DNA of 64,000 nucleotides, from positions 1,045 through 65,044 of the forward strand of contig JAKFXT010000008.1 in assembly GCA_021731245.1 (NCBI GenBank), read 5' to 3'. The DNA comes from Patescibacteria group bacterium (GTDB lineage Bacteria; Patescibacteriota; Minisyncoccia; Phycocordibacterales; JAKFXT01). The first letter of the stretch is position 1; every line of letters starts with the position of its first letter. The translations under genes were made by a program, and so were the position numbers. Below are positions 1,127-54,983 of this stretch, piece by piece. Below the pieces are notes generated by a model that had not been told where the DNA came from, did not search any database, and saw nothing but the letters and a program-made list of their open reading frames with translations.

Positions 1127-1155
1127 TTGACTTTATACCCTATTTATGCTATACT
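1127..1155 (+). promoter_or_regulatory. sigma70-type promoter of the GC-rich orphan gene
   Basis: TTGACT-17 nt-TATACT with extended TG. Confidence 0.7.
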
Positions 1156-1207
1156 TGCGGTTAGAAGGCGGATTTTCCGCCCGCACCTTCACACAAGGGA
1201 GATTGCT

Positions 1208-1741
1208 ATGAAAAAAAGGAATTATGCTGTTCTCTCGGCGGCTTTGGTTTTCAACGCCGTACGTATTGGCTTCCCCGGTATTTCCGAAAAAAGGGGAAGT
1301 CCGGTAAGGAACGCTCATTTCCATGGTGCGTCCGCCAATGAGGGGCCTCTGGTCCGTTACAACGGCGAAGTGCTGGAGAATATCCTGGACCAAATCCAGG
1401 CGGTGGCAAAAAGCGATTTTTCCACCGAGGAAGACATCAAGGTCTTGGTTTCGGCTGGTTTGAGCGGAGTCTCCGTTCAGGTCGCGTTGTACCCGTTTTT
1501 GAGTGACGAGCTCGCGAACGACATCATCGTCAGGTACGCCAGCCTTCTCGAGAAGAAGGCGCTGTTCGAAGGCAAAAATCACGGCGACGTGTTTCTGGAG
1601 GCGAACAACTTCCTGGTGGAATCCCTCGGGATTAGCCGGGAGCAAGCATCCGAGTACTTCGGCTTCATCATCGAGCAGATGCTTCCGTATGTGCAAAGGT
1701 TGCAGGGTGGAGTCATCGAGCCGAGGGTTGCTGTCAGCTGA
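1208..1741 (+). CDS. hypothetical protein (GC-rich orphan)
   Basis: ATG at 1208 preceded by AAGGGAG; own promoter and terminator; no recognisable motif. Confidence 0.7.
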   Translation: MKKRNYAVLSAALVFNAVRIGFPGISEKRGSPVRNAHFHGASANEGPLVRYNGEVLENILDQIQAVAKSDFSTEEDIKVLVSAGLSGVSVQVALYPFLSDELANDIIVRYASLLEKKALFEGKNHGDVFLEANNFLVESLGISREQASEYFGFIIEQMLPYVQRLQGGVIEPRVAVS

Positions 1742-1757
1742 CGGTGACCCGCAAGAC

Positions 1758-1789
1758 AAAACGCCGACCTTCGGGTCGGCGTTTTTTTT
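1758..1789. terminator. intrinsic terminator, probably bidirectional
   Basis: AAAACGCCGACC-TTCG-GGTCGGCGTTTTTTTT between convergent genes. Confidence 0.85.
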
Positions 1790-1791
1790 AT

Positions 1792-2988
1792 TTACTTTTT
1801 ATTCCTTCGGAGGAATGCAGGCACTGCACCCCAATCATCATTGTCTTCGTCCGGTAGTGGCTTTGTATTTTTTTGTTCAACCGGAATTGATTTTACTTCC
1901 ACTTTGACTTCTTCTTTTGGAGAATCTTTTTCTTTTGATGTAAAAATACTACTCATTATTTTTTTCTCTTCCTCAATTGCTTTTTCACGATTACGAATTG
2001 GAAATAGTGATTCGCGAGTATTGTGGGCTGATGGATCAGGAAAACCTGTAGCAATCACCGTTACTTTGACTTCATTTTTCTTTAGTTTCTCATCGTAAAT
2101 TGTTCCGAAAATAACACGAGCATTTGGATCAATTGATTCGGTTATAACTTTTGCCGCATCTTGTATTTCTAGCATTCCCAAATCATCGCCACCGGAAACT
2201 GCAAAGAGCACCCCTTTTGCATTATGTATTGAAATATCGAGAAGTGGAGAATTCACGGCGGCCTTTGCTGCCTCAACTGCTCTGTTTTCGCCTGATGCCA
2301 TACCTATACCCATAAGAGCAGAGCCTGCATTTTCCATAACAGAACGAATATCAGCAAAGTCCACATTGATGATTCCAGGTGTAGTAATCAAATCGGAGAT
2401 TCCTTCCACTGCTTGGCGCAAGACATCATCGCACATTGCGAAGGCTGTCTTTACAGAAGTGTCTTTGGAGACTGTAGCTAGGATTCTGTCATTAGGAATA
2501 ACAATTAATGCGTCCACTTGTTTACGTAATTCATCGAGCCCTTGTTCAGCCAAACGTGAGCGTTGTGAACCTTCAAAAGAAAATGGTCTTGTAACAACAC
2601 CGACAGTTAGAGCCCCAAGTTCTTTGGCAGCTTGCGCAACAATTGGAGCCGCCCCTGTTCCAGTTCCGCCTCCCATTCCACCTGCTATGAAAACCATATC
2701 AGCTCCTTTTATTGCTTCTTGAATTTCTTCTTTAGTTTCTTCCGCAGCCCTACGTCCAATATCTGGATTCATTCCAGCACCAAGTCCGTGAGTTAAATTT
2801 TTTCCAATATGAATTTTCTTTTTTGCATCAGAATGTTGCAAATCTTGTGCGTCAGTATTAACAGCAATAAAGTCTACTCCTTTAACTCCAGTCTTTATCA
2901 TGTGATTGGTAGCATTTTTTCCTGAGCCACCAACACCAATAACCCTTATACGTGCAAATGTTTCGATTTCTGGAGAAATTTTAGGCAT
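1792..2988 (-). CDS. ftsZ: cell division GTPase FtsZ
   Basis: GGGTGTG tubulin signature, INVDFAD T7 loop, C-terminal VPAFLR. Confidence 0.98.
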
Positions 2989-3138
2989 ATTTTCCTTCCG
3001 TGATTAAATCTCATAATAGCAGACGGTTTTACAATTGGGACCTCGACACTATAGGGGATTTTGTGTTGGAATTACATAAAAAACAAGCAAAAAACGACTC
3101 TGTTGAGCCGTTTTTTCTTAAATTCAGATTTCTTATTT

Positions 3139-5066: not shown

Positions 5067-6290
5067 CTAATCTTTTGAGAAGTGTTTTATATAGTGTGGG
5101 AGTTCTAATACGGGCACTGTTTCTTGAGAGCGGTTTTTCATATTGCGTATTATGGCACTGCCTTCAAGGGCCTCCTTTTGACCTATTATTATCATGAAAG
5201 GAATTTTCAGACTTTCTGCTGTTGCAATTTGAGCTGAAATTCTATCTTTAGAAAGAGATTGGTGAATTGGGATTTTTCCTTTACGTAATATTTCAAGTGC
5301 GGCCAAGCTTTTTATTTTTGCTTCAAACCCCAAGTGTATTAAATAAACTTTTGGTTTTTTTGTTTTTAGTTCTTGCTTTGTCTTTTTGGGAACCAATCCT
5401 AGTCCACCAAGGGAAATAGTGATACCAACAGCGGGCACTTCTTTTTTAGCACCGAAACGCTTTACCAAATCATCAAACCTACCTCCACGAGCAAGGACTG
5501 GGTCAAATTTATTTTTGGGATACATTTTATTTTGTTCGTTTTTGGTTTTTATTTCAAAAATAGTACGGGTGTAATATTCCTTTCCTCCCACAAGACAATT
5601 ATTTATTGTGTAAGGGACATTCATGCTTTCCAAAAATTCAAGAACTTCTGCAAAGTGAATACGACTTGTTTCTGTGAGGGCACTTATTGGTTTCGGCGCC
5701 TGATCCTTAAAGAGCATGCACTTATCTTGGGCACATTCTAGAACTTTGAATATATCTTTTTTCAAATTAGGGCGACAATGTGAAGGAACTTCTTCTTCGT
5801 GCTTTTTATAGTAATTATTGAACTCTCTACTGAAGCGAGCGATTGATTCACGGTCTCCCAAACTATTTATTTGAATAAAAGGGTCAGCAAATCCAGACTC
5901 TTCTATTATGGTAAGAGCTGTTTTGAATAGTAGGGCTTCAGCAATTGAACGTGACACCCCGATAATCTCCAGAGAAAACAAAACTGCATCTTTCCCGCCA
6001 TAATCTTCGCGCTTCATGTATTTACGAAGCGGCTCTGTGTGATAAAGCATTAATGGTTGTGGAAGCTCTCCAAAATTGTAATCAAGATAAGCTTTCATTA
6101 AGTCTGGTCTATTTATTTCTCCAGGGAGACCCTCTTTTGCTTCGGCTGGCGCAAAAGCTTTCTTTCTACCAGTCCTAGGTAGAATCTTTAGAGTTTCTTG
6201 TAATGAAGAAAATCCATAATAATTAGCAATTGATATTGCGTTTTCGAAAAGTTCATTTTTTGATCCTTTATCCATAATCAAATTATTCAA
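5067..6290 (-). CDS. histidyl-tRNA synthetase-like protein (divergent)
   Basis: LVGGKEYYTRTIFE, GGRFDDL, PAVG and a C-terminal anticodon-binding domain; motifs 1 and 2 degenerate. Confidence 0.75.
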   Translation of the reverse strand: MNNLIMDKGSKNELFENAISIANYYGFSSLQETLKILPRTGRKKAFAPAEAKEGLPGEINRPDLMKAYLDYNFGELPQPLMLYHTEPLRKYMKREDYGGKDAVLFSLEIIGVSRSIAEALLFKTALTIIEESGFADPFIQINSLGDRESIARFSREFNNYYKKHEEEVPSHCRPNLKKDIFKVLECAQDKCMLFKDQAPKPISALTETSRIHFAEVLEFLESMNVPYTINNCLVGGKEYYTRTIFEIKTKNEQNKMYPKNKFDPVLARGGRFDDLVKRFGAKKEVPAVGITISLGGLGLVPKKTKQELKTKKPKVYLIHLGFEAKIKSLAALEILRKGKIPIHQSLSKDRISAQIATAESLKIPFMIIIGQKEALEGSAIIRNMKNRSQETVPVLELPHYIKHFSKD

Positions 6291-6849
6291 CTTTTTCTTC
6301 CAAATTTATTTTTCCAGGAAACAAACTTATATCTTTTGGTGGATACAATCTTAGAAAAGCTCTGCCGATTATATTTTCTTTCGGTACGGCTCCCCAAATT
6401 CTGGAATCCGAACTGTGAGAACGGTTGTCTCCAAGTACAAAGTACTCATCTTTCTTAAGTGTTGTTTGAAATTGTCCAACAGACTTAAAAGTTATATATG
6501 ATTGGTCAATTTGGAAACCATTTGGGTTCTTATTATTTTTTATAGTTATATTATTGTCAGAAATTAAAACAGTTTCTTCAGGTAGAGCTATTATTCTTTT
6601 AATAAAATATTTTTCAGGATTTTTAGGATAGCGAAAGATGATGACATCATTTCGTTTAGGGTCTTCTAGATTATAAGAGATGCGATCTACTATTAAATAA
6701 TTCAAATCTTCAAAAGTTGGTTCCATTGAGGCACCGGAAACTATGAATGGTTCTGCAATAAAAAAGCGAATAGGAAGTACTATTGCTAAAGTTATAATCA
6801 CGAAGCGAAATGTTTCTTTAAAGAACGATTCTTCTTTTTTTTCTTCCAT
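6283..6849 (-). CDS. lepB: signal peptidase I
   Basis: SGASMEPT catalytic Ser, FIKRII Lys, GDNRSHSSDSR. Confidence 0.95.
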   Translation of the reverse strand: MEEKKEESFFKETFRFVIITLAIVLPIRFFIAEPFIVSGASMEPTFEDLNYLIVDRISYNLEDPKRNDVIIFRYPKNPEKYFIKRIIALPEETVLISDNNITIKNNKNPNGFQIDQSYITFKSVGQFQTTLKKDEYFVLGDNRSHSSDSRIWGAVPKENIIGRAFLRLYPPKDISLFPGKINLEEKVE

Positions 6850-6928
6850 ATTGGTGCCAATTGTAATACCCGCATTCGTTTGACACAAGAGAAAATAAAT
6901 TTTGGATTAAATATTTTAATTATTTTTT

Positions 6929-7016
6929 ATCCGCCCTCAAACTGCACACATAATTTTCTGTTTAAAATTTGCTCCGCTCGGCGCGTCCGCCTTCGCAAGG
7001 CAGTTTGAGGGCGGAT
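6929..7016. repeat. family B structured repeat, copy 1 (17-bp perfect terminal inverted repeat)
   Basis: ATCCGCCCTCAAACTGC...GCAGTTTGAGGGCGGAT; internal motifs shared with 10338-10425 and 37102-37192. Confidence 0.8.
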
Positions 7017-8832: not shown

Positions 8833-9063
8833 ATTCAATTGTATTCGTGGAGGGCCCCTTTAAATTTAAGACACTAATGACTTAAATTTTAGAGAAGTTT
8901 ACTTTCCGCGATTGGCTAATAATCAATTCCTTAAAACAAAAAAGCTCATGGAGCTTTTCATTAAATTAGCACAATATTTGGGAAATGACAAACCCCGCTA
9001 AGAGCGGGGGTCTGGCCGGCACACAGTCGAGCTGTGCGCCGGCCAGATTTTGCCGGGCTTTTA

Positions 9064-9244
9064 TCATTCAGGATTTATTCTTCTTATTACCTGGACGTGG
9101 CGGCTTGGGCCGCTTTGCCCGCTTTTTACTGCTTTCTTCTTGGACGATTTCTTTTTACCTGACGCTTTTCTACTTCTTTTTTTCGCCGCCGCCGGCGCCG
9201 ATGGTGGAACCGCGGAAGCCGGTTTTCGCTTTTTTCTTCGCCAT
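9064..9244 (-). CDS. Lys/Ala-rich small ORF(s): a 24-aa peptide or a frameshifted histone-like protein
   Basis: AAGGAG-7 nt-ATG at 9244 gives MAKKKAKTGFRGSTIGAGGGEKKK*; the +1 frame continues PASAVPPSAPAAAKKRSRKASGKKKSSKKKAVK. Confidence 0.45.
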
Positions 9245-9368
9245 ATCAATCTCCTTAGAGGTGGTTGCGAAATAGCATCAAGACCGAAATGGTCCAAAAG
9301 ATGAACTGATGCCATTTAAAATTCTATACCCGTTTTAATTTTATGTAAATTATTTTCTGTGTTTAAAA

Positions 9369-10312: not shown

Positions 10313-10337
10313 AGGTTTTTAATAAAAAAGTTTTTTT

Positions 10338-10425
10338 GTTTGCGTTTGAATTACACGTATAATTTTCTGCTGAAAATTTACTCTGCTCGGCTCGCCAGCT
10401 TGTGCAAGGTAATACAAATGCAAAC
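10338..10425. repeat. family B structured repeat, copy 2
   Basis: GTTTGCGTTTGAATTAC...GTAATACAAATGCAAAC imperfect TIR, internal AATTTTCTGCTGAAAATT hairpin, GCTCG and GCAAGG motifs. Confidence 0.7.
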
Positions 10426-16805: not shown

Positions 16806-16829
16806 GACGTAAATCATTTAAGAAAAAGA

Positions 16830-16854
16830 AAAAGCCGCCTTGGGGGCGGCTTTT
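16830..16854. terminator. bidirectional intrinsic terminator
   Basis: AAAAGCCGCC-TTGGG-GGCGGCTTTT. Confidence 0.8.
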
Positions 16855-16883
16855 CGTCGGGTGTTAAACCCAACAATTAAAGA

Positions 16884-17570: not shown

Positions 17571-17585
17571 GGATAGCTCCTGATC

Positions 17586-18608: not shown

Positions 18609-18796
18609 TTTCTGATTCTCCTCATTGGTTAATTCTGGTTTTTGTCGATGGGAAGAGGCGGAATGCCTCAACCCGAACTAAATCGTATCTACCCCTAATA
18701 ATAGCATATTTTATAGTAAAAGTCAAGTGCTAGAAACACAAAAATACGGCTTTATTTAGCCGTATTTTTGTGTAATTTTATTTGCGGTGAACTTGT

Positions 18797-38721: not shown

Positions 38722-38814
38722 CCAATTTATATTAAGGGTTTATTACTATTTTGACAAGTAAATTAATAAATGGTTAAATTTTACTTAGTCCAGTTTCCCC
38801 CCGAAGGAAGGAGT

Positions 38815-39087: not shown

Positions 39088-39116
39088 ATTTTTTCGGAGG
39101 AGGAGGGAGAAGTACG

Positions 39117-39142
39117 ACGGCACCTGCGGGTGCCGTTTTTTT
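39117..39142 (+). terminator. intrinsic terminator
   Basis: ACGGCACC-TGCG-GGTGCCGT-TTTTTT. Confidence 0.85.
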
Positions 39143-39145
39143 TAT

Positions 39146-41320: not shown

Positions 41321-41376
41321 AAGTAGTCACCGCAACAAATAACACGAGGGCTATTGTAGTGTCAAATTTTATTTTT

Positions 41377-42240
41377 TTAAATTCTTCTTATTTCTCCCAA
41401 AGATTCTTTGATTAATCCTTTAATCTCCATTACAGAAAGTAAAGTGTTGATTTCGTTTATTGGCATGTTGATAAGAAAAATTAAATCTTCTTTAGATTTT
41501 GGCTCTCTAAGTATTTCTAGAACTTTTATTTCATCCGCTGAACAGTCACTTGGCATACCAAAATCTAATTTTTCCTTATCAGTTTCTATATGAAGTGCCT
41601 CTAGAATATCGTCACTATTTCTTATTGGTGTTGCGCCCAATTTCAAAAGCATATGCGGACCTTCTGATGTTGTAGAAAACATTGAACCAGGGACTGTTAA
41701 AACATCTCTATTGTATTCTGTTGCAAGGCGCGAAGTTATAAGAGTTCCCGACATTTTCTCGGCTTCAATAACAAATGTGGCGTGCGACATGCCCGCCATT
41801 ATTCTATTTCTTTGTGGGAATGTGTAAGGAGCAGCTTTTAAGTTTGGTTCAAATTCAGAAAGTAAAAGACCCCCTGCTTTCAATATTCTTTCGGACAATC
41901 CAAAATTAGTTCTCGGATAAATTACATTTGGGTGAATTCCAGAACCAGGTATGGCAATAGTTTTTATTCCCGCACTTAATGCAAATTCGTGAGCAAGGGC
42001 ATCCATGCCGAGTGCCATACCAGAAATTATTATTACAGGATATCCACGGAGCCCTTGAATTAATTTTTGACAGGCAGATTTTCCATATTCGCTATATTTA
42101 CGTGAGCCGACAATTGCTAAGAATTTATTATTTTCCCAATCGGGGAGAGTCCCACGATAATAAAGTTTTTTAGGTGGGCTCGGTATTTCTTTTAAAAGGG
42201 GAGGGAAATTTTCTGGAGATATTTCTTTTATCTCATTCAT
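41377..42240 (-). CDS. dprA: DNA-processing protein DprA
   Basis: AIVGSR, ISGMALGMD, FPQRNRIMAG, EA..SGTLIT; upstream of topA. Confidence 0.95.
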   Translation of the reverse strand: MNEIKEISPENFPPLLKEIPSPPKKLYYRGTLPDWENNKFLAIVGSRKYSEYGKSACQKLIQGLRGYPVIIISGMALGMDALAHEFALSAGIKTIAIPGSGIHPNVIYPRTNFGLSERILKAGGLLLSEFEPNLKAAPYTFPQRNRIMAGMSHATFVIEAEKMSGTLITSRLATEYNRDVLTVPGSMFSTTSEGPHMLLKLGATPIRNSDDILEALHIETDKEKLDFGMPSDCSADEIKVLEILREPKSKEDLIFLINMPINEINTLLSVMEIKGLIKESLGEIRRI

Positions 42241-42282
42241 TAAAAAATTGTATCACGATAAATATTTATCAATTTCCACATA

Positions 42283-42312
42283 TTGACAAATCTGTTTATT
42301 TAGTGTATTATT
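42283..42312 (+). promoter_or_regulatory. sigma70 promoter, copy 1 of a near-identical pair
   Basis: TTGACAAATCTGTTTATTTAGTGTATTATT. Confidence 0.8.
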
Positions 42313-42358
42313 AAGGATAGATTTTCCGAATAACGCTTTCTTTTTGAAGGAGCAGAAA

Positions 42359-42811
42359 ATGAACAAAATCCTGATTTTCTTGGCGTTTTTCGTCACCCTG
42401 ACCGGCAATGTTCGCGCAAGTGGAGACGGGGACGGTGGCGATGGTGCAGGCGGTGGAGATGGTGGAGGTGCGGGGAAACAAATCCCGCAGTACGAAAAAT
42501 GCTTCACCTTCGGTCGCGCGCTCCTCAACAGGGTGAACGACGAAAAGATTTCCGAGACCGATGCTCTCAAGATTGCCAGGGCAAATGCCACGATTCTCTA
42601 CCCTGGAAAGACCGACCTCTGGGAACCCATCGTCGCGGACGCGGTGAAGTATGCGTACTCGTTGAGTCTTGCGACAGCAAGATCGCAAGTCGGAACCCAG
42701 CTCACCGGCGACTGCGCGCAGGCGGATGCGGTGCTCAAGAGTAAAGACCGCTGGGGAGACAATCAAGGATGGATTTCCAGGGTGGAAAAAGTTCCGGCGA
42801 AAAAGAAGTAA
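42359..42811 (+). CDS. putative secreted protein with a Gly/Asp-rich N-terminus (GC-rich orphan)
   Basis: AAGGAG SD, signal peptide ending VRA, GDGDGGDGAGGGDGGGAG. Confidence 0.7.
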   Translation: MNKILIFLAFFVTLTGNVRASGDGDGGDGAGGGDGGGAGKQIPQYEKCFTFGRALLNRVNDEKISETDALKIARANATILYPGKTDLWEPIVADAVKYAYSLSLATARSQVGTQLTGDCAQADAVLKSKDRWGDNQGWISRVEKVPAKKK

Positions 42812-42832
42812 GTCGCTTGCGAGCGACGGAAT

Positions 42833-42859
42833 AGGCGGGTGTGCAAGCACCCGCCTTTT
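42833..42859 (+). terminator. intrinsic terminator
   Basis: AGGCGGGTG-TGCAAG-CACCCGCCT-TTT. Confidence 0.85.
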
Positions 42860-42866
42860 GTTTTGT

Positions 42867-42896
42867 TTGACAAATTTGTATATTTAGTGTATTATT
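42867..42896 (+). promoter_or_regulatory. sigma70 promoter, copy 2
   Basis: TTGACAAATTTGTATATTTAGTGTATTATT, 28/30 identical to 42283-42312. Confidence 0.8.
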
Positions 42897-42937
42897 TAAA
42901 ATAGAAGTGTTTCGACAACTAACTATGGGAGATTTCC

Positions 42938-43222
42938 ATGAACGCTGATTTGCTGATTGGAGCTGTTTGCTGGGGCTTGATGTTCCTCTTCTTTTTTTGG
43001 AACATCTTCCACAGGAAGGAGGGCGAGAAATTCCTCACCATTCTGACTGGCGGTGGGGTGTCGGCATACTGTCTGTCCGGGATTTTGTTCCATATCACCT
43101 TCCCGAGCTACTCGACATGGAGCTTCAAGGCCCTCCAGGTTTGGTCCTTGGCCGGCATGCTCATGGTTCTCATCGTGGTGATGATGGCGATTCGTGGCAG
43201 TCCCGAAAGAGGAAGAAACTGA
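42938..43222 (+). CDS. small 3-TM membrane protein (GC-rich orphan)
   Basis: GGGAG SD, three hydrophobic segments, terminator 43241-43271. Confidence 0.7.
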   Translation: MNADLLIGAVCWGLMFLFFFWNIFHRKEGEKFLTILTGGGVSAYCLSGILFHITFPSYSTWSFKALQVWSLAGMLMVLIVVMMAIRGSPERGRN

Positions 43223-43304
43223 TATAGAAGGCAACAGGTCGAGCCGGTTCCGCATCACGGAACCGGCTTTTCATTTTTCATACTTATAATTTATACTTGA
43301 CTCC

Positions 43305-44567
43305 ATGCTTGATATTAAGTTTATTCGCGAAAATAAAGATTTAGTTGATTTGGCCGCCAAGAAAAAATTAATTAAGTTTGATGTTTCCAAGTTGCTCGCG
43401 GTGGATGAAAGACGCCGAGAGACTTTGCAATTGGTAGAAAGTAAGCGTGCGGAACAAAATAATACTGCTGGAGCTGTTGCTATAGAAAAAGATATTAATA
43501 AAAGAGGGCAATTAATAGCTGAATCAAAGCTTGTAAAAGAAGAATTACAGAAAGAAGAAGAAAATCTCAAAGAAATAATGAAGGAGTGGCAATCTTTGAT
43601 GCTTCAAGTTCCTAACATTCCCGATATGTCTGTCCCAGATGGAATGAGTGATGCCGATAATAAAGAAATAAAAGTTTGGGGAGAAAAAACAAAATTTGAA
43701 TTCGAGGCGAAGGGGCACACTGATTTAATGCTCTTGCACGATATGATTGATTTAGAACGTGGGGTGAAGGTATCTGGTTTCAGAGGATATTTTTTGAAAA
43801 ATGATGGAGCTCTTTTATCTTTTGCTATTTGGCAATATGCCCAGAGATTTTTTTTGAGTAAAGGATTTTCACCAATAATCTCTCCTTCTTTGATTAGAAG
43901 GGAAGTTCTTATGGGTAGTGGATATTTGCCACAAGGTGAAGAAGATTTGTATAAAACACAAGATGGAGAATATTTGGCGGGAACTGCAGAAGTTGGAATG
44001 ATGGGTTATCACATGGATGAGATTTTAAAAAAAGAAGAATTACCAATAAAGTTTCTAGGTTTTTCTCCGTGTTTCAGACGTGAAGCGGGAGCACATGGTA
44101 AAGATACTAAAGGACTTATTCGAGTGCATGAATTTTATAAATGGGAGCAAGTTATTTTGTGTGAAGCAACGCATGAGGAGAGTGTGAAATATCATGAGTG
44201 GCTAAATAGAAATACAGAAGAATTTATAGAATCTTTAGGCCTTCCATATCACACAGTTATAAATTGTGGAGGGGACTTGGGTCTTGGACAGGTTAAGAAA
44301 TATGATATTGAACTTTGGGTTCCAGGAGAGCAGAAATATAGAGAAATAAGTTCCGCCTCATATTTTCATGATTTTCAGACGCGTCGCCTTAATATTCGTT
44401 ACAAAGACTCTGATGGCACAATGCGTTTTGCGCACTCATTAAATAGCACAGCCATTCCCACTCCTAGAATTCTAGTTTCAATTGTTGAAAATAATCAGCA
44501 AGCAGATGGCAGTATAAAAATTCCTGAAGCCCTTGTGCCGTATTTGGGTAAGGATACAATAAAATAG
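43305..44567 (+). CDS. serS: seryl-tRNA synthetase
   Basis: MLDIKFIREN, GTAEV, CFRREAG, RVHEF, REISSAS, FQTRRL. Confidence 0.97.
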   Translation: MLDIKFIRENKDLVDLAAKKKLIKFDVSKLLAVDERRRETLQLVESKRAEQNNTAGAVAIEKDINKRGQLIAESKLVKEELQKEEENLKEIMKEWQSLMLQVPNIPDMSVPDGMSDADNKEIKVWGEKTKFEFEAKGHTDLMLLHDMIDLERGVKVSGFRGYFLKNDGALLSFAIWQYAQRFFLSKGFSPIISPSLIRREVLMGSGYLPQGEEDLYKTQDGEYLAGTAEVGMMGYHMDEILKKEELPIKFLGFSPCFRREAGAHGKDTKGLIRVHEFYKWEQVILCEATHEESVKYHEWLNRNTEEFIESLGLPYHTVINCGGDLGLGQVKKYDIELWVPGEQKYREISSASYFHDFQTRRLNIRYKDSDGTMRFAHSLNSTAIPTPRILVSIVENNQQADGSIKIPEALVPYLGKDTIK

Positions 44568-45398
44568 ATGTTTTCAAGCAAAGGGGTTTTATCCTCTCCG
44601 CAGGCACAAAAGAAAAAAAGAATAAACCGTATTAAGGGCACACTTACGTTTATTTTTATTATTTTAGGTATTAGTTCTGGTCTATACAGTGCTCCAAGGT
44701 ATAAGGAGGTCACAATTTATAATATTTCAATATCAGGAAATGAGGTAATAGAAAAAAATACTATTGAGAATATTGTTTCGGAAAAGCTCTCTGGCAATCA
44801 ATATCTATTTTTCCCTAATAGAAACATTTTTCTCTACCCAAAAACATCTATCATTGATTCAATAAAAAATATAAGCCCCTATATTTTAAGCGCCAATGTT
44901 TCCTTTGGAAATTTCAATAGTATTAATGTGGAAGTAATAGAAAGGAAACCCCACTCTCTATATTGTGGAGCAGAATATAAAAAGGAAGATGGTGTTAGTT
45001 GTTATTTCTTAGATGACAAAGGTTTTATTTTTGATGAAGCTCCTCAATTTTCGGGTAATACTTTTGTTAGATACTTTGGCACAACCACAGAGCCATATAT
45101 TGGCAACACTTACTCAAACACTATTTTATTCCAAACACTCTCTCGTTTTATAGATAATTTGAAAGAAAAAGGATTAGATGTGGTTTCTGTGCGCATTATT
45201 TCACCTGATGAGATTTTATTTTATCTAGATACTGGAAGTAAATTGATTATTTCTGAAAAAACAGACTATAACAAAGTCATTACTTATATTGCAGACATAA
45301 TGACAAGTGCTGATTTTAAAGGAAAAGATGAAAACGGGAAATTAAATGTTTCTTATGTAGATTTTCGTTTCGGTAACAAAATATTCTACAAAAAATAA
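44568..45398 (+). CDS. FtsQ/DivIB-like protein
   Basis: Basic N-terminus, TM helix, POTRA-like ISGNE..VIERKP, C-terminal YVDFRFGNKIFYK. Confidence 0.75.
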   Translation: MFSSKGVLSSPQAQKKKRINRIKGTLTFIFIILGISSGLYSAPRYKEVTIYNISISGNEVIEKNTIENIVSEKLSGNQYLFFPNRNIFLYPKTSIIDSIKNISPYILSANVSFGNFNSINVEVIERKPHSLYCGAEYKKEDGVSCYFLDDKGFIFDEAPQFSGNTFVRYFGTTTEPYIGNTYSNTILFQTLSRFIDNLKEKGLDVVSVRIISPDEILFYLDTGSKLIISEKTDYNKVITYIADIMTSADFKGKDENGKLNVSYVDFRFGNKIFYKK

Positions 45399-45416
45399 AA
45401 CAAGCGGAAGTCTACA

Positions 45417-45698
45417 TCAACTTCCGCTTTTCCTCAAAAGATTAAAAAGATTATAGAAACATTCGTATATAGCGATTTCGCTTGAGGCGCCTACTCCAAA
45501 GCATTTTTCAGGGTGGAATATTTGGGCAACTATAATTCTCCTTTTTTGCTTGTTAATCGAGAATTCCTGTGTAGATATGTAGACAAGGGTTGTCTGTCTC
45601 GATCTCAGTGGTTCAGCGGATCCCGACCTGATCACAGTTCCTTTTGGAACAGGTATGACCCCCTCGTACTCAAAAGCTTCCTTCAAGATTTCGTTCAT
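45417..45698 (-). CDS. hypothetical protein (orphan)
   Basis: GGGAG SD before ATG 45698; hairpin AAGCGGAAGT..ACTTCCGCTT at the 3' end. Confidence 0.55.
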   Translation of the reverse strand: MNEILKEAFEYEGVIPVPKGTVIRSGSAEPLRSRQTTLVYISTQEFSINKQKRRIIVAQIFHPEKCFGVGASSEIAIYECFYNLFNLLRKSGS

Positions 45699-45786
45699 TG
45701 TCTCTCCCAAGGTACAGTTTCTTCTTTATACAATCACAAAGCATTATTTCTATCAAATTTAGCTTTGTGTTAATGTGCATTTTGTA

Positions 45787-46734
45787 ATGAGTAATTTTTG
45801 GGAAAAGTTGAATAAGCCATTTTTTGTTTTAGCTCCGCTTGCTGATGTTACGGATGCGGCCTTTCGTCGTGTCATTGCAAAGTATGGAAAGCCGGATGTC
45901 CTCTGGACCGAATTCGTTTCCGCGGATGGGCTCATGAGTCCGGGGCGTGAAGTTTTGCTAAATGATTTGAAATATACAGAAGGGGAGCGTCCGATTGTTG
46001 CACAACTTTTTTCAGGACACCCAGAGAAAATGTTTGGCGCGGCCAAGCTCTGTAAAGAATTAGGATTTGATGCAATTGATATAAATATGGGTTGTCCTGA
46101 TAAATCCATAGAAAAACAATGTGCGGGGGCGGCTTTAATAAAAAACCCAGAGTTAGCCAAAGAAATAATTCGTGCCGCTAAGAGTGGCGCGGAAGGACTT
46201 CCTATTTCCGTTAAAACTCGTGTGGGTTACAACAAAGATGAAATATATACTTGGATTCGCTCTCTTCTTGAAGAAGATTTGGCAGTACTAACAATTCATG
46301 CGAGAACCAGAAAAGAAATGTCTCTTGTTCCTGCGCGATGGGAAGATGTCGCAAGAGTTGTGAAATTACGAGATGAAATGAAAAAGAAAACTTTGATAAT
46401 TGGAAATGGGGATGTAAAAAATTTAGATGATACACGCGAAAAAGCAAAAACAAGTGGAGCCGATGGAATAATGCTAGGGCGGGCTATTTTTGGTAACCCA
46501 TGGTTATTTTCTGAAAAAGTGCCGGATATAAAAGAAAAATTATCTGTAATGGTGGAACATACAAAACTTTTTGAAGAATTGTTGGGGGGTATAAAAAGTT
46601 TTGCCATTATGAAAAAACATTACAAAGCCTATGTAAACGGTTTTGATGGAGCTAAAGAATTACGTATGAAATTAATGGATTGTAATAATGCCACTGAAAT
46701 AGAAACTATTGTAAATGAATTTTTAAAAGGGTAG
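45787..46734 (+). CDS. dus: tRNA-dihydrouridine synthase
   Basis: LAPLADVTD, DINMGCP, SVKTR, IHAR, GNGDV, GR...NPW. Confidence 0.93.
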   Translation: MSNFWEKLNKPFFVLAPLADVTDAAFRRVIAKYGKPDVLWTEFVSADGLMSPGREVLLNDLKYTEGERPIVAQLFSGHPEKMFGAAKLCKELGFDAIDINMGCPDKSIEKQCAGAALIKNPELAKEIIRAAKSGAEGLPISVKTRVGYNKDEIYTWIRSLLEEDLAVLTIHARTRKEMSLVPARWEDVARVVKLRDEMKKKTLIIGNGDVKNLDDTREKAKTSGADGIMLGRAIFGNPWLFSEKVPDIKEKLSVMVEHTKLFEELLGGIKSFAIMKKHYKAYVNGFDGAKELRMKLMDCNNATEIETIVNEFLKG

Positions 46735-46767
46735 TCTGAAGTAAATTTGTTCCCAAGGGAGGTCTCA

Positions 46768-47091
46768 GTGGCTTATGGTTTCGTGTGTTCCCGTTGCGGA
46801 AGTGTCGAGGGTGTGCACGGATTTGAGCCTGATGAGGATGGCTCAAAACGCTTGAGTGCATATCGCTCCAATCTCAACTCCTGTCCTGGCTTCAAGTACA
46901 AGAGAAAAGATGAGAGATTGGCTGTACACGCATACTCATGGTGTCCAACCAGTACTTTTCCTAGAGAAATACTCTTGAGAGATCAGAGACGGCAATATGG
47001 AGGAAAAAAAATTAAACACATCAACCACTCAGTTACAGCAATTTTGTTCTTCAGCGGGGGTCGCAGTGCGGTGGTCGACATCGGCTCGTAG
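46768..47091 (+). CDS. hypothetical protein with a CxxC..H..C motif (orphan)
   Basis: GGGAGG SD before GTG; hairpin GGGCGC..GCGCCC downstream. Confidence 0.55.
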   Translation: MAYGFVCSRCGSVEGVHGFEPDEDGSKRLSAYRSNLNSCPGFKYKRKDERLAVHAYSWCPTSTFPREILLRDQRRQYGGKKIKHINHSVTAILFFSGGRSAVVDIGS

Positions 47092-47201
47092 TTTTTGGGG
47101 TGGGGCGCTTGAAACATGGCGCCCTTTCTTTTTGTCTTGTAAAACTTTTTTTAAAGTAGTTTAATAGCCTTGACTGAACATTCACAAAGAAAGGACAAAG
47201 G

Positions 47202-47597
47202 ATGTTTCAACAAAGCGATTTCCCCACCCCTCGAATACTGGGTCTTGCGTGGGCAACGGCTTTTTCCATGGACAGAGAAGTCGAAAGAATTATTTCTTCC
47301 TGGAATGACGGTAAAGCCAAGATTTCGTTCATGCAGTTGGTGAACTCTAAGCCTTTTGGCCCCCTTGCTTTTGATGCCATGCTTGAATCTCTGAACCCGG
47401 ACGTTACCGCTACACTGCGAAACTTAGTCAAAAAAGATTTGAACAAGAAACTCTGGGTCGTGTATTGCAAACTAAAAGCAGAAAAAGGTCTACGTAGGCC
47501 ACCAACCTTCAATCCATTGACCTTTCTCCACGCCTGTACTTTGGACCCAGCCATTTTTTCTTATCAAGCTGAAGAGTATTGCGTGCAGGAAGTTTGA
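47202..47597 (+). CDS. hypothetical protein (orphan)
   Basis: AAAGGA SD; terminator GTGCGCCC..GGGCGCACTTTTT. Confidence 0.6.
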   Translation: MFQQSDFPTPRILGLAWATAFSMDREVERIISSWNDGKAKISFMQLVNSKPFGPLAFDAMLESLNPDVTATLRNLVKKDLNKKLWVVYCKLKAEKGLRRPPTFNPLTFLHACTLDPAIFSYQAEEYCVQEV

Positions 47598-47660
47598 AGT
47601 GCGCCCCGACACCAAGGGCGCACTTTTTGTTTGGGGGATTTTTTCAGATATACTAGTGCA

Positions 47661-48703: not shown

Positions 48704-48733
48704 TATTCTGATATTCTGCAGAATATCAGAATA
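48704..48733. repeat. 30-bp perfect palindrome (left copy)
   Basis: TATTCTGATATTCTG|CAGAATATCAGAATA. Confidence 0.9.
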
Positions 48734-48746
48734 GATAAATGAGTTT

Positions 48747-49013
48747 ATGAAAACCAGTAAGCAACTAGAAAGATATTTCAAAGGTGCAGCAAATCATTGG
48801 CGCATTTCCATATTGTTATTAGTCGACAAACAAGAGGGCGTTACAGTAGAGGGTATTGCGGATAATTTGAATGGAAATTTAAAAACAATTTCTCAACACA
48901 CAAGGTCTTTGGTTCATGCTGGGTTACTTAATAAAAAATATAAAGGTAACAGAGTTAATCACACTCTATCTCCTTATGGAAAAATGTTTTTACGCTTCAT
49001 AAAACTATTCTGA
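48747..49013 (+). CDS. winged helix-turn-helix (ArsR-like) regulator
   Basis: FKGAANHWRISIL, TVEGIA..L..NLKTISQH...L..AGLL.K. Confidence 0.85.
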   Translation: MKTSKQLERYFKGAANHWRISILLLVDKQEGVTVEGIADNLNGNLKTISQHTRSLVHAGLLNKKYKGNRVNHTLSPYGKMFLRFIKLF

Positions 49014-49040
49014 TATTCTGCAGAATATCAGAATAGTTTT
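49001..49040. repeat. 40-bp perfect palindrome (right copy) overlapping the HTH stop codon
   Basis: AAAACTATTCTGATATTCTG|CAGAATATCAGAATAGTTTT. Confidence 0.9.
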
Positions 49041-49124
49041 ATGGCAATTGGGAAGACAAGAGATTGAGGAAAAGAGGTTTTTGTTGTAAATTAGTTAAGT
49101 TTTGCAAAGTTTCGTGTTTAGAGC

Positions 49125-52767: not shown

Positions 52768-52814
52768 AAAACCCGCCTAAGGTATAAGGTTAGCCCTTAC
52801 CTTAGGCGGGTTTT
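52768..52814 (+). terminator. long hairpin terminator
   Basis: AAAACCCGCCTAAGGTA..TACCTTAGGCGGGTTTT. Confidence 0.75.
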
Positions 52815-52881
52815 CCTTTTATCGATTACTTATGATAAATTTAGTAAGGTATATAAAATTACAAATATTAAATAACACTCA

Positions 52882-54000
52882 ATGAGAAAATACGTATCAG
52901 TTTTTGTCTTAACAATATTTTTAGCCCTTGCTCCTACGGCCCTTGCTCATGAGTCCCGCACATATGAAATAAACGGAAATGAATATGCGTTCACCGTTGG
53001 TTCTTTGGGGGAACCTGTTGTGGTAGACGATAAAAGCGGAGTCGACTTAGGTATTAAACGCTTCGGCGCTGCACTTGAAGGAGCAGAGAAAATTTTGAAG
53101 GTTGAAGTAAAGAGCGGTGATGTCAAAAAAGTTTTTGACTTAGAGACTGTTTGGGGAGAAGTTGGGAAATACAAAACTACATTTTTTATTACAAAGGAGG
53201 ACCCTATCTCATACAGGTTTATAGGAACTATAGATGGTAGAGAAATTGATTTTCTGTTTGAGTGTTCTCCTAAGGGACACCAAATGAATGCAATGGAGGA
53301 AGATAAAACCAGGACTAAATTATCAGAAAATGTTTTCCTAATTTCAAAGAAAGGTTCATTTGGTTGCCCTGCAAAAAAGAGCGATTATCAATTTCCTGTT
53401 TCTACAAAAGATCAGCTTCATTTGAATAACGGTATATTTTTCGCAATCTTTCTAGGTATTGTAGGAACAATTCTTTCCATTTGGGCTATTTTAAGAAATA
53501 GGAATAATGGAAATCAAATGGTGGAGTCTGTGAGTAACAAAAAAATAATTCGTATATTAATCATCGCCCTAATCTTAGGACTTGTCGTTTATGGAGTATT
53601 TTGTCTAAATAGCAGAACTGATAAGAAAGACAAAGTGGAAGTGCCTATGGACCATATGGCTCATCCTATGGTTGAAATAAATCTTTCTAGTCCGATTCCA
53701 AAATTATCTCTGGATGTGGTTAAAGATTCAAAGGATGGATATAACATTCATCTGATTACTCAAAATTATTCCTTTACTCCAGAAAGTGTTGGCGGAAAGA
53801 ATAAGGACAATACTGGACACGCGCATTTGTATGTAAATGGGGTCAAAGTAGCTAGACTTTATAGCTCATGGTTTAACCTTGGGAACAGTTTTTTGAAAGA
53901 AGGAGAGAATCTTATTGAAGTTACTCTTAATGCAAATGACCACAGCGAATGGGTGCAAAAAGGTGAACACATTTCTGCTAAAACAAAAATAATAAAATAG
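52882..54000 (+). CDS. two-domain membrane protein with His/Met-rich putative metal-binding motifs
   Basis: Signal peptide ending ALA-HE, two central TMs, MDHMAH, GHAHLYVNG, TLNANDH. Confidence 0.6.
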   Translation: MRKYVSVFVLTIFLALAPTALAHESRTYEINGNEYAFTVGSLGEPVVVDDKSGVDLGIKRFGAALEGAEKILKVEVKSGDVKKVFDLETVWGEVGKYKTTFFITKEDPISYRFIGTIDGREIDFLFECSPKGHQMNAMEEDKTRTKLSENVFLISKKGSFGCPAKKSDYQFPVSTKDQLHLNNGIFFAIFLGIVGTILSIWAILRNRNNGNQMVESVSNKKIIRILIIALILGLVVYGVFCLNSRTDKKDKVEVPMDHMAHPMVEINLSSPIPKLSLDVVKDSKDGYNIHLITQNYSFTPESVGGKNKDNTGHAHLYVNGVKVARLYSSWFNLGNSFLKEGENLIEVTLNANDHSEWVQKGEHISAKTKIIK

Positions 54001-54003
54001 TTA

Positions 54004-54420
54004 ATGAAAAGTATAACTGTAGAAGTAATTGTAGGTGCACCAATAGAAAAGGTATGGAAGATGTGGACTGGTCCGGAGCATATTGTACATTGGTGTCACG
54101 CATCTGATGACTGGGAGTGTCCGAAGGCTGAAAATGATTTGAGAGTGGGAGGAAGATTTTTATCAACTTTTGCCGCTAAAGATAAATCACAATCTTTCGA
54201 TTTAACGGGGACTTATACGGCAGTGGAAGAAAATAAATTGATTGGCTACACCATGGATGGGGATGATGCTAGAAAAGTGGAGATTCATTTTGAAAAAGTT
54301 GATGGGGGAGTAAAAATTACTGAGACTTTTGATATGGAAAATCAAAATTCTGAAGAGCTCCAGCGCTCCGGCTGGCAAGCAATACTGAATAATTTTAAAT
54401 CTTACGTCGAGAGTAATTAG
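54004..54420 (+). CDS. SRPBCC/AHSA1 family protein
   Basis: APIEKVW..WT.PEHI..W, DLRVGGRF, QRSGWQAILNNF. Confidence 0.9.
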   Translation: MKSITVEVIVGAPIEKVWKMWTGPEHIVHWCHASDDWECPKAENDLRVGGRFLSTFAAKDKSQSFDLTGTYTAVEENKLIGYTMDGDDARKVEIHFEKVDGGVKITETFDMENQNSEELQRSGWQAILNNFKSYVESN

Positions 54421-54466
54421 AGAGTAATTAATTTTAAATAAAAAGAAGCCCGCATCGCGGGCTTCG

Positions 54467-54829
54467 TCAGGCGGCTTTTTTCTCTCCTTTTTGATCTTCA
54501 CGCTCAAATTCTCGTTCCATCTCTTCTTCCATGTCCCGAAGATCTTTGGGACACACAGGGTCGTGTCTCTTTGTCACGAAGAAGTGGGGTTTTTCATTTA
54601 GCTTTTTTTCTACCCAAATCTCGCAGCTATACCACTCTCCAGCGTGGATTCCTTCTCTGCAGTAGGAGCAGTCGTGCCATTGCCAGGCCATTCGACTGAA
54701 GTTTCGAAGCAGACGCAGGTACTCTCGATAGGATTCGTCGTTGTCTGCAAAGAGCTCGCCGAATTCACCGGGATTTGGGTCTAAATGAAGTGGAGTTCCC
54801 GCCACTTCATGCACAATGATTTCTTGCAT
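54467..54829 (-). CDS. hypothetical zinc-finger-like protein (GC-rich orphan)
   Basis: GTTCTTTCATAAGGAG leader; HDCSYCREGIHAGEWY...RHDPVCP; hairpin 54445-54465. Confidence 0.65.
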   Translation of the reverse strand: MQEIIVHEVAGTPLHLDPNPGEFGELFADNDESYREYLRLLRNFSRMAWQWHDCSYCREGIHAGEWYSCEIWVEKKLNEKPHFFVTKRHDPVCPKDLRDMEEEMEREFEREDQKGEKKAA

Positions 54830-54983
54830 GGTGGCTCCTTATGAAAGAACGGGTGGGATTCAGAAAATACTATACTATATAAATTTTCTAATGCGCAAAC
54901 GGTGATTTTAAATGGGCTCTTGTGACTATATCTATAGAGTAGTAGACTTTTTTGATGGGTATTTAATTCATTTAAAAATAATA

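Follow-up and report, generated by a model that had tools for sequence, protein, structure and literature searches.

Several kinds of self-contained gene unit have been described in bacteria and their phages. A phage moron is a promoter-gene-terminator unit lying between conserved genes, integron cassettes and the minimal mobile elements of Neisseria place variable cargo at fixed sites, and the T-DNA of Agrobacterium consists of bacterium-borne genes with the translation and sorting signals of the recipient, which they reprogramme. The units considered here lie in a window of 64 kb, meaning the whole stretch of DNA that was analysed, from a patescibacterial genome of 695 kb (G000). Like morons, they are single autonomous units of deviant composition, each with its own promoter, gene and terminator, set between conserved genes and patchy among relatives. 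Unlike morons, they sit on a cellular chromosome and not in a phage genome, are old and kept in place rather than recently added, carry cargo almost without PHROG matches (a weak match for one of 14 window cargo proteins) and bear signals that misfit the carrier's own ribosome. They share fixed slots and variable cargo with integron cassettes and Neisseria minimal mobile elements, from which they differ in having a promoter per unit and much vertically inherited cargo. Unlike integron arrays, the window has no attC-like or shared flanking repeat family; a repeat search recovered no family at unit ends, no attC-like or border repeats and one duplicated promoter only, and the promoters of the cassettes at 42867 and 42283 are 87% identical across 39 nt. 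T-DNA resembles them in its recipient-type translation and sorting signals (the recipient of the cassettes being judged from their cargo), but the proposed recipient is another bacterium, borders and clustering are absent, and the promoters are of the carrier's type.

In one subgroup of Parcubacteria, the 16S rRNA lacks CCTCC, the anti-Shine-Dalgarno (anti-SD) sequence, and SD sequences are scarce in core genes (Tsurumaki et al. 2022, PMC9297842; class iv in PMC10783764); SD helices are thought not to form there, according to the passages of PMC9297842 compared. G000 belongs to this subgroup, so that the loss of the anti-SD is already known, while an accompanying SD-led gene class is undescribed in the passages of these two papers that were compared, and a literature search for such a class in such genomes found no description. 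In the Bacteroidota, as covered in part of Baez et al. (2019, PMC6847099), initiation is SD-less and A-rich genome-wide, a feature shared with G000, and the anti-SD is kept; G000, unlike them, has lost the anti-SD, yet about a tenth of its genes retain an SD. The type IV secretion systems of Patescibacteria are mostly relaxase-less and of unknown substrate in the portion of PMC12102498 consulted; a VirB4-like ATPase, found in 5/5 genomes tested, makes this system a candidate route for the cassettes.

The units of the window (table 1) are part of a second, real gene class, which comprises dozens of stand-alone genes across the genome and is marked by a -35/-10 promoter, a leader, an SD, a terminator and high GC3, whereas core genes have no SD and are in many cases leaderless. 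The preliminary description had offered a separate gene class as its second option, and this holds by SD, GC3 and terminators alike. GC3 is bimodal over 694 genes (BIC -1304 with one component, -1900 with two) and lies at 0.43-0.76 in 15 of the 16 ORFs of the units, the exception being 35158-35340 (0.31), against a genome mode of 0.28. When these 16 ORFs were scored by pairing energy with a canonical anti-SD, all reached -6.6 kcal/mol or better except 47202 (-5.3), and the SD is canonical in shape and spacing (AAGGAG, 5-8 nt). A promoter pattern of the form TTGNNN-N16-18-TANNNT is present upstream of 9/16, and the earlier G+C tallies of three 60-nt segments (35, 37 and 15) were exact on recounting.

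Table 1. Units and genes of the second class in the window
Feature	Position	Strand	Remarks
trxB/ftsZ cassette	1127-1790	+	-35 TTGACT at 1127, -10, hairpin leader, SD, terminator
Orphan ORF of trxB/ftsZ cassette	1208-1741	+	177 aa
GC-rich unit	8985-9315	-	Hairpins downstream
Two-gene cassette	16825-18726	-	Both genes SD-led; -35 about 18726; terminator
SPFH/Band 7 membrane protein	17586-18608	-	First gene of pair
Membrane orphan	16884-17570	-	Second gene of pair; SD-led
Lipobox-protein cassette	26925-28116	-	ORF 26982-28001, 339 aa, lipobox LSGC
Cassette	28200-28755	-	Orphan 28259-28648, 129 aa
Cassette	31963-32470	+	Orphan 32029-32403, 124 aa; terminator
Two SD-led ORFs behind tRNA-Leu	35135-35692	-	boxA-like GTTCTTTAAC; terminator
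Lipobox protein	35333-35665	-	Lipobox ISGC; SD-led
Second ORF behind tRNA-Leu	35158-35340	-	SD-led; G003 orthologue 49%
Cassette between relA and topA homologues	38751-39145	+	Orphan 38815-39087, 90 aa
Cassette	42283-42862	+	Signal-peptide protein 42359-42811
Cassette	42867-43275	+	Membrane orphan 42938-43222
SD-led orphan	45417-45760	-	ORF 45417-45698, 93 aa; GC shift weak; strong terminator not found
SD-led orphan	46750-47135	+	ORF 46768-47091, 107 aa; terminator
Orphan	47140-47630	+	ORF 47202-47597, 131 aa; SD weak; terminator
Cassette	54440-54898	-	Orphan 54467-54829, 120 aa; boxA-like motif before SD; terminator

Across G000 the SD is confined to this class. Strong SDs (cut-off -8.4 or lower) precede 44/269 in-frame starts against 10/326 out-of-frame starts in high-GC3 genes, the corresponding figures being 23/1260 and 35/1964 in low-GC3 genes, and the 54 most conserved genes, including those for ribosomal proteins and EF-Tu, have an SD in no case and a GC3 of 0.30. 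Of 28 SD-led high-GC3 genes with a core gene next after them, 25 are followed by a strong terminator, compared with 16/89 convergent core-core junctions. By the rule used, a strong terminator was not found after 28259-28648, 35333-35665, 17586-18608 or the ORF so marked in table 1, of which 35333-35665 and 17586-18608 are upstream genes of pairs. The GC shift, said to begin at the transcription start, does so only in part, as leaders reach just 0.36-0.46 GC in 24 G000 units (promoters 0.20-0.26, upstream DNA 0.32-0.38); at the level of the gene its boundaries are sharp, and adjoining core 3′ ends have a GC3 of 0.284 against 0.285 elsewhere. Two of the ORFs had to be redrawn: 35158-35665 is really two ORFs directly behind the tRNA, and 9064-9244 does have an SD-led start at 9244, from which the frame runs for only 24 codons (9170-9244), a lysine-rich histone-like frame (9064-9315) lying one base out of register with it at a run of six A (A6).

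Cassette neighbours are core chromosomal genes (ftsZ, gyrA, serS and others) with orthologues in four sister species, and six window ORFs (1208, 17586, 26982, 28259, 35158, 46768) have in-place homologues among these species that are still SD-led or GC-rich, with normal synonymous and high protein divergence. Five have in-place orthologues in G003: that of 1208-1741 (51%) retains promoter and SD; that of 26982-28001 (about 30%) retains the lipobox, the SD, the terminator and the boxA-like motif (GTTCTTT in the leader of the G000 cassette); that of 28259-28648 has 41% identity across 71 aa; and that of 46768-47091 has 54-71%, a G004 homologue (33%) lying elsewhere in its genome. At the site of 17586, an SPFH gene is present in 4/4 genus genomes examined, including G001, G002 and G004, at 19-23% identity. 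The C-terminal half of 26982-28001 is possibly a beta-barrel, as a lead only, since a feature search returned neighbours from barrel clans at scores of just 0.81-0.83; the ORF had no match in viral contigs. Turnover occurs as well: the trxB-ftsZ slot is empty in G001, G002 and G004, a different SD-led ORF occupies the slot of 38815-39087 in G003, and some other slots hold cargo that cannot be aligned among sister species. For many units, conservation in place, the refuting condition named beforehand, goes against the recurring capture of genes into promoter slots that was proposed earlier as the main option. Between G000 and G003, 19 high-GC3 pairs have a median protein identity of 0.52 against 0.82 in 459 core pairs, at fourfold-site distances of 0.574 and 0.562, and hold their GC3 at 0.56/0.52. 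With start codons picked without using the SD, both members carry one in 10/21 orthologue pairs (background 11.6% per start); the other 11 do not have it in both members, some through wrong starts. In one case the 15-nt SD region is identical across three species at a fourfold distance of 0.50-0.56 and a GC3 of 0.25-0.32. The units are therefore not recent imports. A recently acquired genomic island was rejected, there being no composition decay and no close donor homologue in the homology search of the cargo.

What is new in this class is that lipoboxes and PEP-CTERM tails occur on its cargo, with no Lgt, LspA, BamA or exosortase found, absences that rest on draft genomes, and that cargo elsewhere in the order bears outer-membrane barrels and T9SS tails. 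Lipoboxes occur in 4/97 and 2/65 high-GC3 genes against 0/636 and 0/613 others, in contrast to a bacterial lipoprotein pathway with LspA and Lgt, each found in 0/5 genomes, as was Omp85, in searches whose positive controls gave signal. The G000 class includes an EpsA-like HTH gene and, outside the window, two PEP-CTERM genes with signal peptides, above the Pfam cut-off. PEP-CTERM occurs in 42/301 genomes of the order, and the subtype in the cargo belongs to named Betaproteobacteria at 71/78 loci; among 25 analysable loci, 16 have an SD and 19 a terminator, and GC3 exceeds that of neighbours in 21/23. The PEP-CTERM/exosortase system is present as motif and signal peptide, and exosortase was found in 0/41 and 0/5 genomes (13 PEP-CTERM bearers, one single-contig genome), in a search whose control gave signal in one archaeon only. 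Eight outer-membrane barrel genes show an SD of -7 or lower in six, a promoter in eight, a terminator in six and core-gene neighbours in seven. T9SS tails are found in 31/301 genomes, and 28 analysable genes outside G056 have a sigma70 promoter in 22 cases, the Bacteroidota TANNTTTG in one, a terminator in 25 and an SD in nine but not in 19; SprA was found in 0/5 genomes, in a search where no control genome gave signal. A recognisable host-only signal is present in just 6/97 G000 high-GC3 genes and 2/16 window ORFs.

The anti-SD is absent from the 3′ end of the G000 16S rRNA and from 26/26 tails read, the same tail type being present in 156/301 genomes of the order. This tail pairs with neither gene class, and, judged from its sequence, the G000 ribosome cannot pair with the cassette SD. 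Among cassettes defined without SD or GC3, an SD occurs in 20/25 in G000 and 9/15 in G003, or 29/40 in two genomes with betaproteobacterial PEP-CTERM, against 0/16 in G238, G064, G245 and G175, whose T9SS cargo is SD-less and three of which share the anti-SD-less tail; the groups, two and four genomes from one and two families, are not independent. The ribosome-binding signal tracks the apparent host group of the cargo. Promoters are of sigma70 type throughout, also with SD-less T9SS cargo, and the epibiont's own ribosome could also use SD-less leaders. G029 is mixed (an SD of -7 or lower in 0/5 cassettes, yet a T9SS gene at -6.1), and 80-kb samples of G008 and G011 yielded no cassette by the filter used. 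The GC3 offset is not universal, 3/8 barrel genes not exceeding their neighbours and the offset being about zero in G245, G175 and G014. Cassette codons are unlike those of Betaproteobacteria (AGG 0.23 versus 0.04 of Arg, GGA 0.27 versus 0.07 of Gly), and codon residuals correlate at r 0.64-0.77 with core genes of three high-GC relatives versus 0.51 with betaproteobacterial genes.

The SD and the sorting signals, for which no matching machinery was found in the epibiont, suggest that cassette proteins are synthesised within the host on which it lives. The reading that we prefer, at about even odds, is that the units are host-directed expression cassettes, transcribed by the epibiont, delivered as mRNA, and translated and sorted by the host. 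The epibiont's sigma70-type RNA polymerase would transcribe them from the -35/-10 promoters, and the leader-SD-ORF-hairpin transcript would enter the attached host cell, perhaps through the relaxase-less VirB4 type IV system. Since the promoters are of the carrier's and not the recipient's type, RNA rather than DNA delivery is indicated. Host ribosomes would then translate the message, and host Sec, Lgt/Lsp, Bam, exosortase or T9SS would sort products that may remodel host envelope, regulation and metabolism, evolving fast under conflict; the predicted host of G000 is a betaproteobacterium, and high GC3 may reflect release from whatever holds the epibiont's own translated genes AT3-rich. Slightly more tentative is the broader proposal of an 'mRNA effector' system run by anti-SD-less Parcubacteria, in which a dedicated cassette set would be transcribed and its mRNAs passed to the attached host, whose ribosomes and envelope machines would produce regulators, lipoproteins, barrels and surface proteins of the PEP-CTERM or T9SS type. 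With the anti-SD lost, the parasite ribosome would be orthogonal to these messages and translation at home therefore blocked, and the ribosome-binding site and tags would name the host group.

Among the alternatives, each of which we regard as unlikely, the best placed is a native second class translated by the epibiont, its GGAG box read by a protein or a trans-acting RNA and its proteins displayed or injected. Epibiont-type promoters everywhere, the patescibacterial look of the codon residuals and a window gene at 6283-6849 that by its sequence resembles signal peptidase I agree with this, and injected protein sorted on the host side would account for the sorting signals; however, in shape and spacing the box is a canonical SD, it changes flavour or vanishes with cargo type among lineages of the same 16S tail, and it is missing from the most conserved genes.

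Somewhat less probable is repeated capture from SD-using donors by natural transformation, SD, GC3 and sorting signals being slowly decaying relics. Horizontal transfer into Patescibacteria is on record in the part of PMC12455944 consulted, slots are empty or differently filled among relatives, G003 orthologues are scarce for high-GC3 genes of G000 (17/71 versus 441/607 core genes), and the cargo is of betaproteobacterial type, which a donor's ribosome-binding site would likewise track. Against it, in-place orthologues keep SD, lipobox, PEP-CTERM and GC3 at saturated synonymous distance, the SD persists even where GC3 has turned AT-rich, the cargo has no close donor homologue, and decay from a common GC-rich origin is rejected by a strong/weak correlation of 0.18 versus 0.12; decay of a GC-rich donor to local composition would require, by calculation, a starting GC4 above 1 in G000. 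Capture via RNA, also raised in the preliminary description, lacks an enzyme in G000, because no reverse transcriptase (RVT_1) was found there.

More doubtful again is delivery as DNA, by T-DNA-like or whole-chromosome entry, with transcription by host RNA polymerase and translation likewise host-side. Cassette -35 boxes are stronger (24/68, reverse control 9) than those of divergent core genes (13/87) or tRNAs (7/37; control 5), terminators are specific to the class, VirB4 is present, and a boxA-like motif stands in 7/99 leaders (0.6 expected) in an order where Rho exceeded the cut-off in 0/41 genomes. But SD-less T9SS cargo has sigma70 promoters and not the TTTG/TANNTTTG that a Bacteroidetes polymerase needs (PMC6847099, in part), units are scattered one by one and border repeats were not found, relaxase is absent from most patescibacterial type IV systems (PMC12102498, in part), and one unit lies behind a tRNA and lacks its own promoter. 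Local hypermutation or biased gene conversion (DGR-like, reverse-transcriptase-mediated or at recombination hot spots) is very improbable, as the near-uniform fourfold sites of the units (A.20, C.30, G.27, T.24) and reverse transcriptase genes in G001 and G003 are outweighed by an equal reduction of A and T, synonymous distance that is not elevated, no GC3 gradient into neighbours, no reverse transcriptase found in G000, G004 or G096, and SD and sorting signals left unaccounted for; a diversity-generating retroelement target was rejected, with no adenine-specific change and no RVT_1 found in G000.

If host-directed expression by mRNA is correct, one bacterium would express genes in another without phage or plasmid, and two known oddities, anti-SD loss and the relaxase-less type IV system, would gain a purpose. 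A long-open question, which hosts most Parcubacteria have and how they affect them, would become testable. Genome sequence by itself would then suffice to tell the host group of each lineage, from the sorting tags of its cassettes and their type of ribosome-binding site. Should the mRNA route prove wrong, it would still have to be explained why SD and sorting signals are kept where the machinery to match them is missing, and the cassette set still predicts the host from the genome (here Betaproteobacteria), a prediction that can be checked by FISH or co-culture.

The genome of the source bacterium (G000; a 695-kb draft in 22 contigs, about 37% GC) holds two classes of genes, here called with a purpose-built amino-acid-based caller and separated by thresholds of our own setting. 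The preliminary description had offered a separate gene class as one account of the Shine-Dalgarno (SD)-led, GC-rich units, or cassettes, in the window, to be doubted if GC3 proved unimodal; the distribution is bimodal genome-wide, the hand GC counts are exact on recount, and 15 of 16 ORFs have an SD of ≤ −6.6 kcal/mol and 15 of 16 a GC3 of 0.43–0.76. An SD motif precedes 25/64 high-GC3 genes but only 12/600 of the AT-rich core genes, while a −10-like box 5–8 nt before the ATG is found at 6/64 and 221/600, respectively, and core genes with this box look leaderless from its position. Strong SDs (≤ −8.4 kcal/mol with the canonical anti-SD) precede in-frame rather than out-of-frame starts of the high class in G000 (44/269 versus 10/326) and in the same-genus genomes G003 (25/200 versus 9/195), G001 (9/31 versus 2/41) and G004 (7/63 versus 3/62), and with 23/1260 versus 35/1964 in the low class, frame-specificity is confined to the high class. 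Some foreign clusters of an ordinary kind, lacking an SD (contigs C16, C18 and C21), fall within the high-GC3 set and dilute these contrasts. High GC3 and an SD of −7 or better coincide in 68 G000 genes; a strong −35 element is present in 24/68 cassettes (reverse control 9), against 13/87 divergent core genes and 7/37 tRNAs (control 5), and strong terminators follow 25/28 SD-led high-GC3 genes lying upstream of a core gene, against 16/89 convergent core-core junctions. The idea that cassettes are merely highly expressed genes was rejected. None of the 54 most conserved genes has an SD. Ordinary variable genes exist alongside the cassettes, as illustrated by one AT-rich orphan in the window (see the table).

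The single 16S gene of G000 ends without the anti-SD CCTCC and matches a Parcubacteria subgroup that lacks it. CCTCC is missing from all 26 tails read among 41 genomes, and the G000-type tail occurs in 156/301 genomes of the order, a tally that includes the unpublished G258 and many drafts without a 16S gene. Anti-SD loss in these bacteria has already been published (PMC9297842, PMC10783764). Judged by its 3′ end, the G000 ribosome cannot read the cassette SD; its own tail pairs with neither gene class, and an altered SD/anti-SD pair based on this tail was rejected for want of signal in either. The SD is nonetheless maintained: with starts picked without regard to it, both members have one in 10/21 orthologue pairs, against 11.6% per out-of-frame start, and in one family (f70) the 15-nt SD region is identical across three species despite a fourfold distance of 0.50–0.56 and a GC3 of 0.25–0.32. 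Translation at home through a reader outside the known set is a rival reading that we regard as unlikely.

The main model of the preliminary description was recurring acquisition of single genes into promoter slots; in its relic-capture form, cassettes are genes taken from SD-using donors. In keeping with it, the trxB-ftsZ slot is empty in three of four sister genomes, and a G003 orthologue is present for only 17/71 high-GC3 genes, against 441/607 core genes. Conservation in place, named there as the outcome that would speak against the model, was found for five window ORFs, whose G003 orthologues share 27–71% over aligned parts; in the four same-genus genomes compared, corresponding slots hold GC3-shifted orphans, and the slot of ORF 17586 holds an SPFH gene in 4/4 genomes examined at 19–23% identity. 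G000 and the whole G003 draft share 497 reciprocal pairs, 19 of them high-GC3, with a protein identity of 0.52 versus 0.82 in core pairs, an effectively equal fourfold distance (0.574 versus 0.562) and a retained GC3 of 0.56/0.52. Cassettes thus come and go, and because of these in-place orthologues, equal distances, low identities and retained GC3, those that stay are old and fast-evolving, with their style kept. At ORF 1208, the −35, −10 and SD are conserved, with a protein identity of 51%. At fourfold sites, core genes have a strong/weak correlation of 0.12 and cassettes one of 0.18 (442 sites, leaving out three pairs resembling core or island genes); by our calculation, a composition decaying to 0.28 as fast as core genes do would have had to start above 1. 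Against this age and style, relic capture is improbable. Read contigs over 27500–47400 contain no joint skipping a unit, which bears on that interval only; the runs listed as containing the window stretch are four DNA runs from one study, one possibly the source, with no RNA run among them.

Part of the cargo carries sorting signals whose processing machinery was not detected in the genomes searched. Lipoboxes occur in 4/97 and 2/65 high-GC3 genes, every one SD-led, versus 0/636 and 0/613, and one of the two in the window (26982, 35333), that of 26982, is retained in G003 at about 30% protein identity. Searches for LspA, Lgt and Omp85 matched 0/5 genomes, while positive controls were matched. 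PEP-CTERM genes are present in 42/301 genomes of the order (G258 included) and exosortase in 0/41 and 0/5 genomes. The analysis took in 29 PEP-CTERM loci, 4 of them cut; among the other 25, 16 have an SD and 19 a terminator, GC3 exceeds that of the neighbours in 21/23, and strong SDs number 13/116 in-frame versus 2/145. OMP-barrel genes (8/301 genomes) are likewise SD-led stand-alone units amid core genes. Among 61 cassette-class proteins from outside the window, seven matched Pfam above a cut-off and count as genuine genes or domains: two are PEP-CTERM proteins, one each has a receiver domain and a LuxR-type HTH, and three are metabolic (inositol monophosphatase, SDR and IMP cyclohydrolase-like). 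An eighth matched a family of shadow ORFs and is unlikely to be a true gene. The metabolic genes recall phage auxiliary metabolic genes. The best NCBIfam match of the HTH protein, below cut-off, is EpsA, an exosortase-B/PEP-CTERM regulator. One PEP-CTERM protein has a Patescibacteria protein (53%) as its sole near-full-length relative, and among the best 80 of 518 matches to its motif subtype, 71/78 loci are in named Betaproteobacteria, 6 in unspecified Proteobacteria and 1 in Paceibacteria. Together, the HTH and the two PEP-CTERM genes point to host exopolysaccharide or floc control. The majority of the cargo is unrecognisable, and a sorting tag in only 6/97 G000 genes counts against a host-side reading.

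The ribosome-binding signal varies across the order. Bacteroidetes, as described in the part of PMC6847099 covered, lack an SD and have promoters of the TTTG/TANNTTTG type. Genes with a T9SS tail occur in 31/301 genomes. The 42 examined include 8 that are cut or lack a signal-peptide start, and 6 from G056, which probably lie on foreign contigs in the draft, were set aside. The remaining 28 have a sigma70 promoter in 22 cases, a Bacteroidota box in 1, a terminator in 25 and an SD in 9, absent from 19. The leaders of 17 SD-less genes are poor in G (5%), and 65% of them have an A at −3, against 12–44% in core genes of four T9SS-tail genomes. When cassettes were defined blind to the SD, with orphan status, promoter, leader and terminator as the sole criteria, an SD was present in 20/25 (G000) and 9/15 (G003), and in 0/16 in 80–120-kb samples of G238, G064, G245 and G175, whose cargo includes SC-type lipoboxes. 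Such lipoboxes are typical of Bacteroidota. An 80-kb G014 sample yielded 12 cassettes with little GC3 offset and a weaker, short AAAGG/AAAGGA flavour, a third signal type; no cassette passed the filter in samples of G008 and G011, and G029 was mixed. In these few, related genomes, the ribosome-binding signal appears to follow the host group of the cargo, and the promoter does not. The predicted host group is Betaproteobacteria for G000 and Bacteroidota for G238, G064, G245 and G175. SD-less leaders could also be readable by the epibiont's own ribosome.

Individual units and other features are collected in the table. For the ORF proposed at 9064–9244, the SD-led start yields 24 codons only; the frame offset there may reflect a broken gene, phase variation, an assembly slip or dual use. 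Promoter duplication is a possible route of cassette birth, and the palindromes are likely operator sites, with similar boxes recurring in G002 and G003. For 26982–28001, a first homologue search returned only itself, a second the G003 orthologue and three weak matches, and viral contigs held none; it may be a barrel protein. The atlas search with 42359–42811 gave no usable match (0.82). Rfam over the window found tRNAs only, and the 37 G000 tRNAs called by ARAGORN include a tRNA-Ile with anticodon TAT, unusual in bacteria. A shared export motif in leaders was rejected, leaving only a boxA-like word in 7–15/99 (G000 7/68 versus 8/632 core; G003 1/31), with a near-perfect copy in the leader of cassette gene L162 and none seen before the 16S gene. 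NusB is present in 20/21 genomes and Rho over the cut-off in 0/41.

Features of the window and of related contigs
Location	Feature	Observation
9064-9315 (-)	Lysine-rich histone-like frame	Leaderless-type ATG (9315); SD-led ATG (9244) one base off frame, at A6 run
42283-42321; 42867-42905	Common 39-nt promoter of adjoining cassettes	87% identity; ORFs unrelated
48704-48741; 49006-49043	Long palindrome, two copies	Flank small ArsR-like HTH gene 48747-49013
18803-19663; 6923-7000; 10332-10409; 19017-19051; 26751-26785	Structured repeats (families D1, D2, D6, D8, D14)	Beside tRNA genes or in spacers
35682-35692; 54850; 28060	boxA-like words	
33059-33589	Orphan	AT-rich (GC3 0.21), SD-less, leaderless-type
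G000:C17:4095-4829	IMP cyclohydrolase-like	Cassette-style
G000:C10:18541-19335	Inositol monophosphatase family	Cassette-style
G000:C14:5476-6240	SDR	Cassette-style
G000:C11:14790-15083	LuxR-type HTH (L152)	SD-class, alone; matches DNA-binding end of EpsA
G014:C1:200001-280000	Sample with 12 cassettes	
G056:C14, C15, C19	T9SS-rich contigs	Lack core neighbours as well as promoters and terminators
G003:C8:56346-56996; G003:C2:10302-10880; G001:C1:367148-367810	Reverse transcriptase genes	None found in G000

A VirB4-like ATPase is present, and a type IV secretion system (T4SS) is a candidate only as the delivery route for cassettes; patescibacterial T4SSs mostly lack a relaxase, according to the text covered of PMC12102498. 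A search for SprA matched 0/5 genomes, and control genomes likewise gave no match. That DNA, and not mRNA, is delivered to the host seems quite improbable. Local mutagenesis is very improbable as the source of cassette GC, an adenine-specific process being rejected by the equal drop of A and T and a gradient into neighbours by adjoining core 3′ ends (GC3 0.284 versus 0.285 elsewhere). The GC shift had been described as beginning at the transcription start; this holds in part, the step being partly due to AT-rich promoters. Cassette codon usage resembles that of GC-richer relatives; because adaptation to Betaproteobacteria was looked for and not found, and the GC3 offset is missing in some lineages, high GC3 stays unexplained.

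Anti-SD loss, T4SS and horizontal gene transfer into Patescibacteria (documented in PMC12455944) are already known, while an SD-led gene class and host-side expression are undescribed in the literature covered, which was mainly open-access and without supplements; the parts covered of PMC6851277, PMC11393006 and 10.1101/2024.03.08.584096 hold nothing on an SD-led cassette class. Cassettes operate like T-DNA genes and look like phage morons, yet fail membership of both. Their translation and sorting signals seem to fit a diderm partner and their promoters the carrier. The simplest reading, to which we give roughly even chances, is that cassettes would be transcribed in the epibiont and their mRNA, stabilized by leader and 3′ hairpins, would be delivered to the host and translated there.
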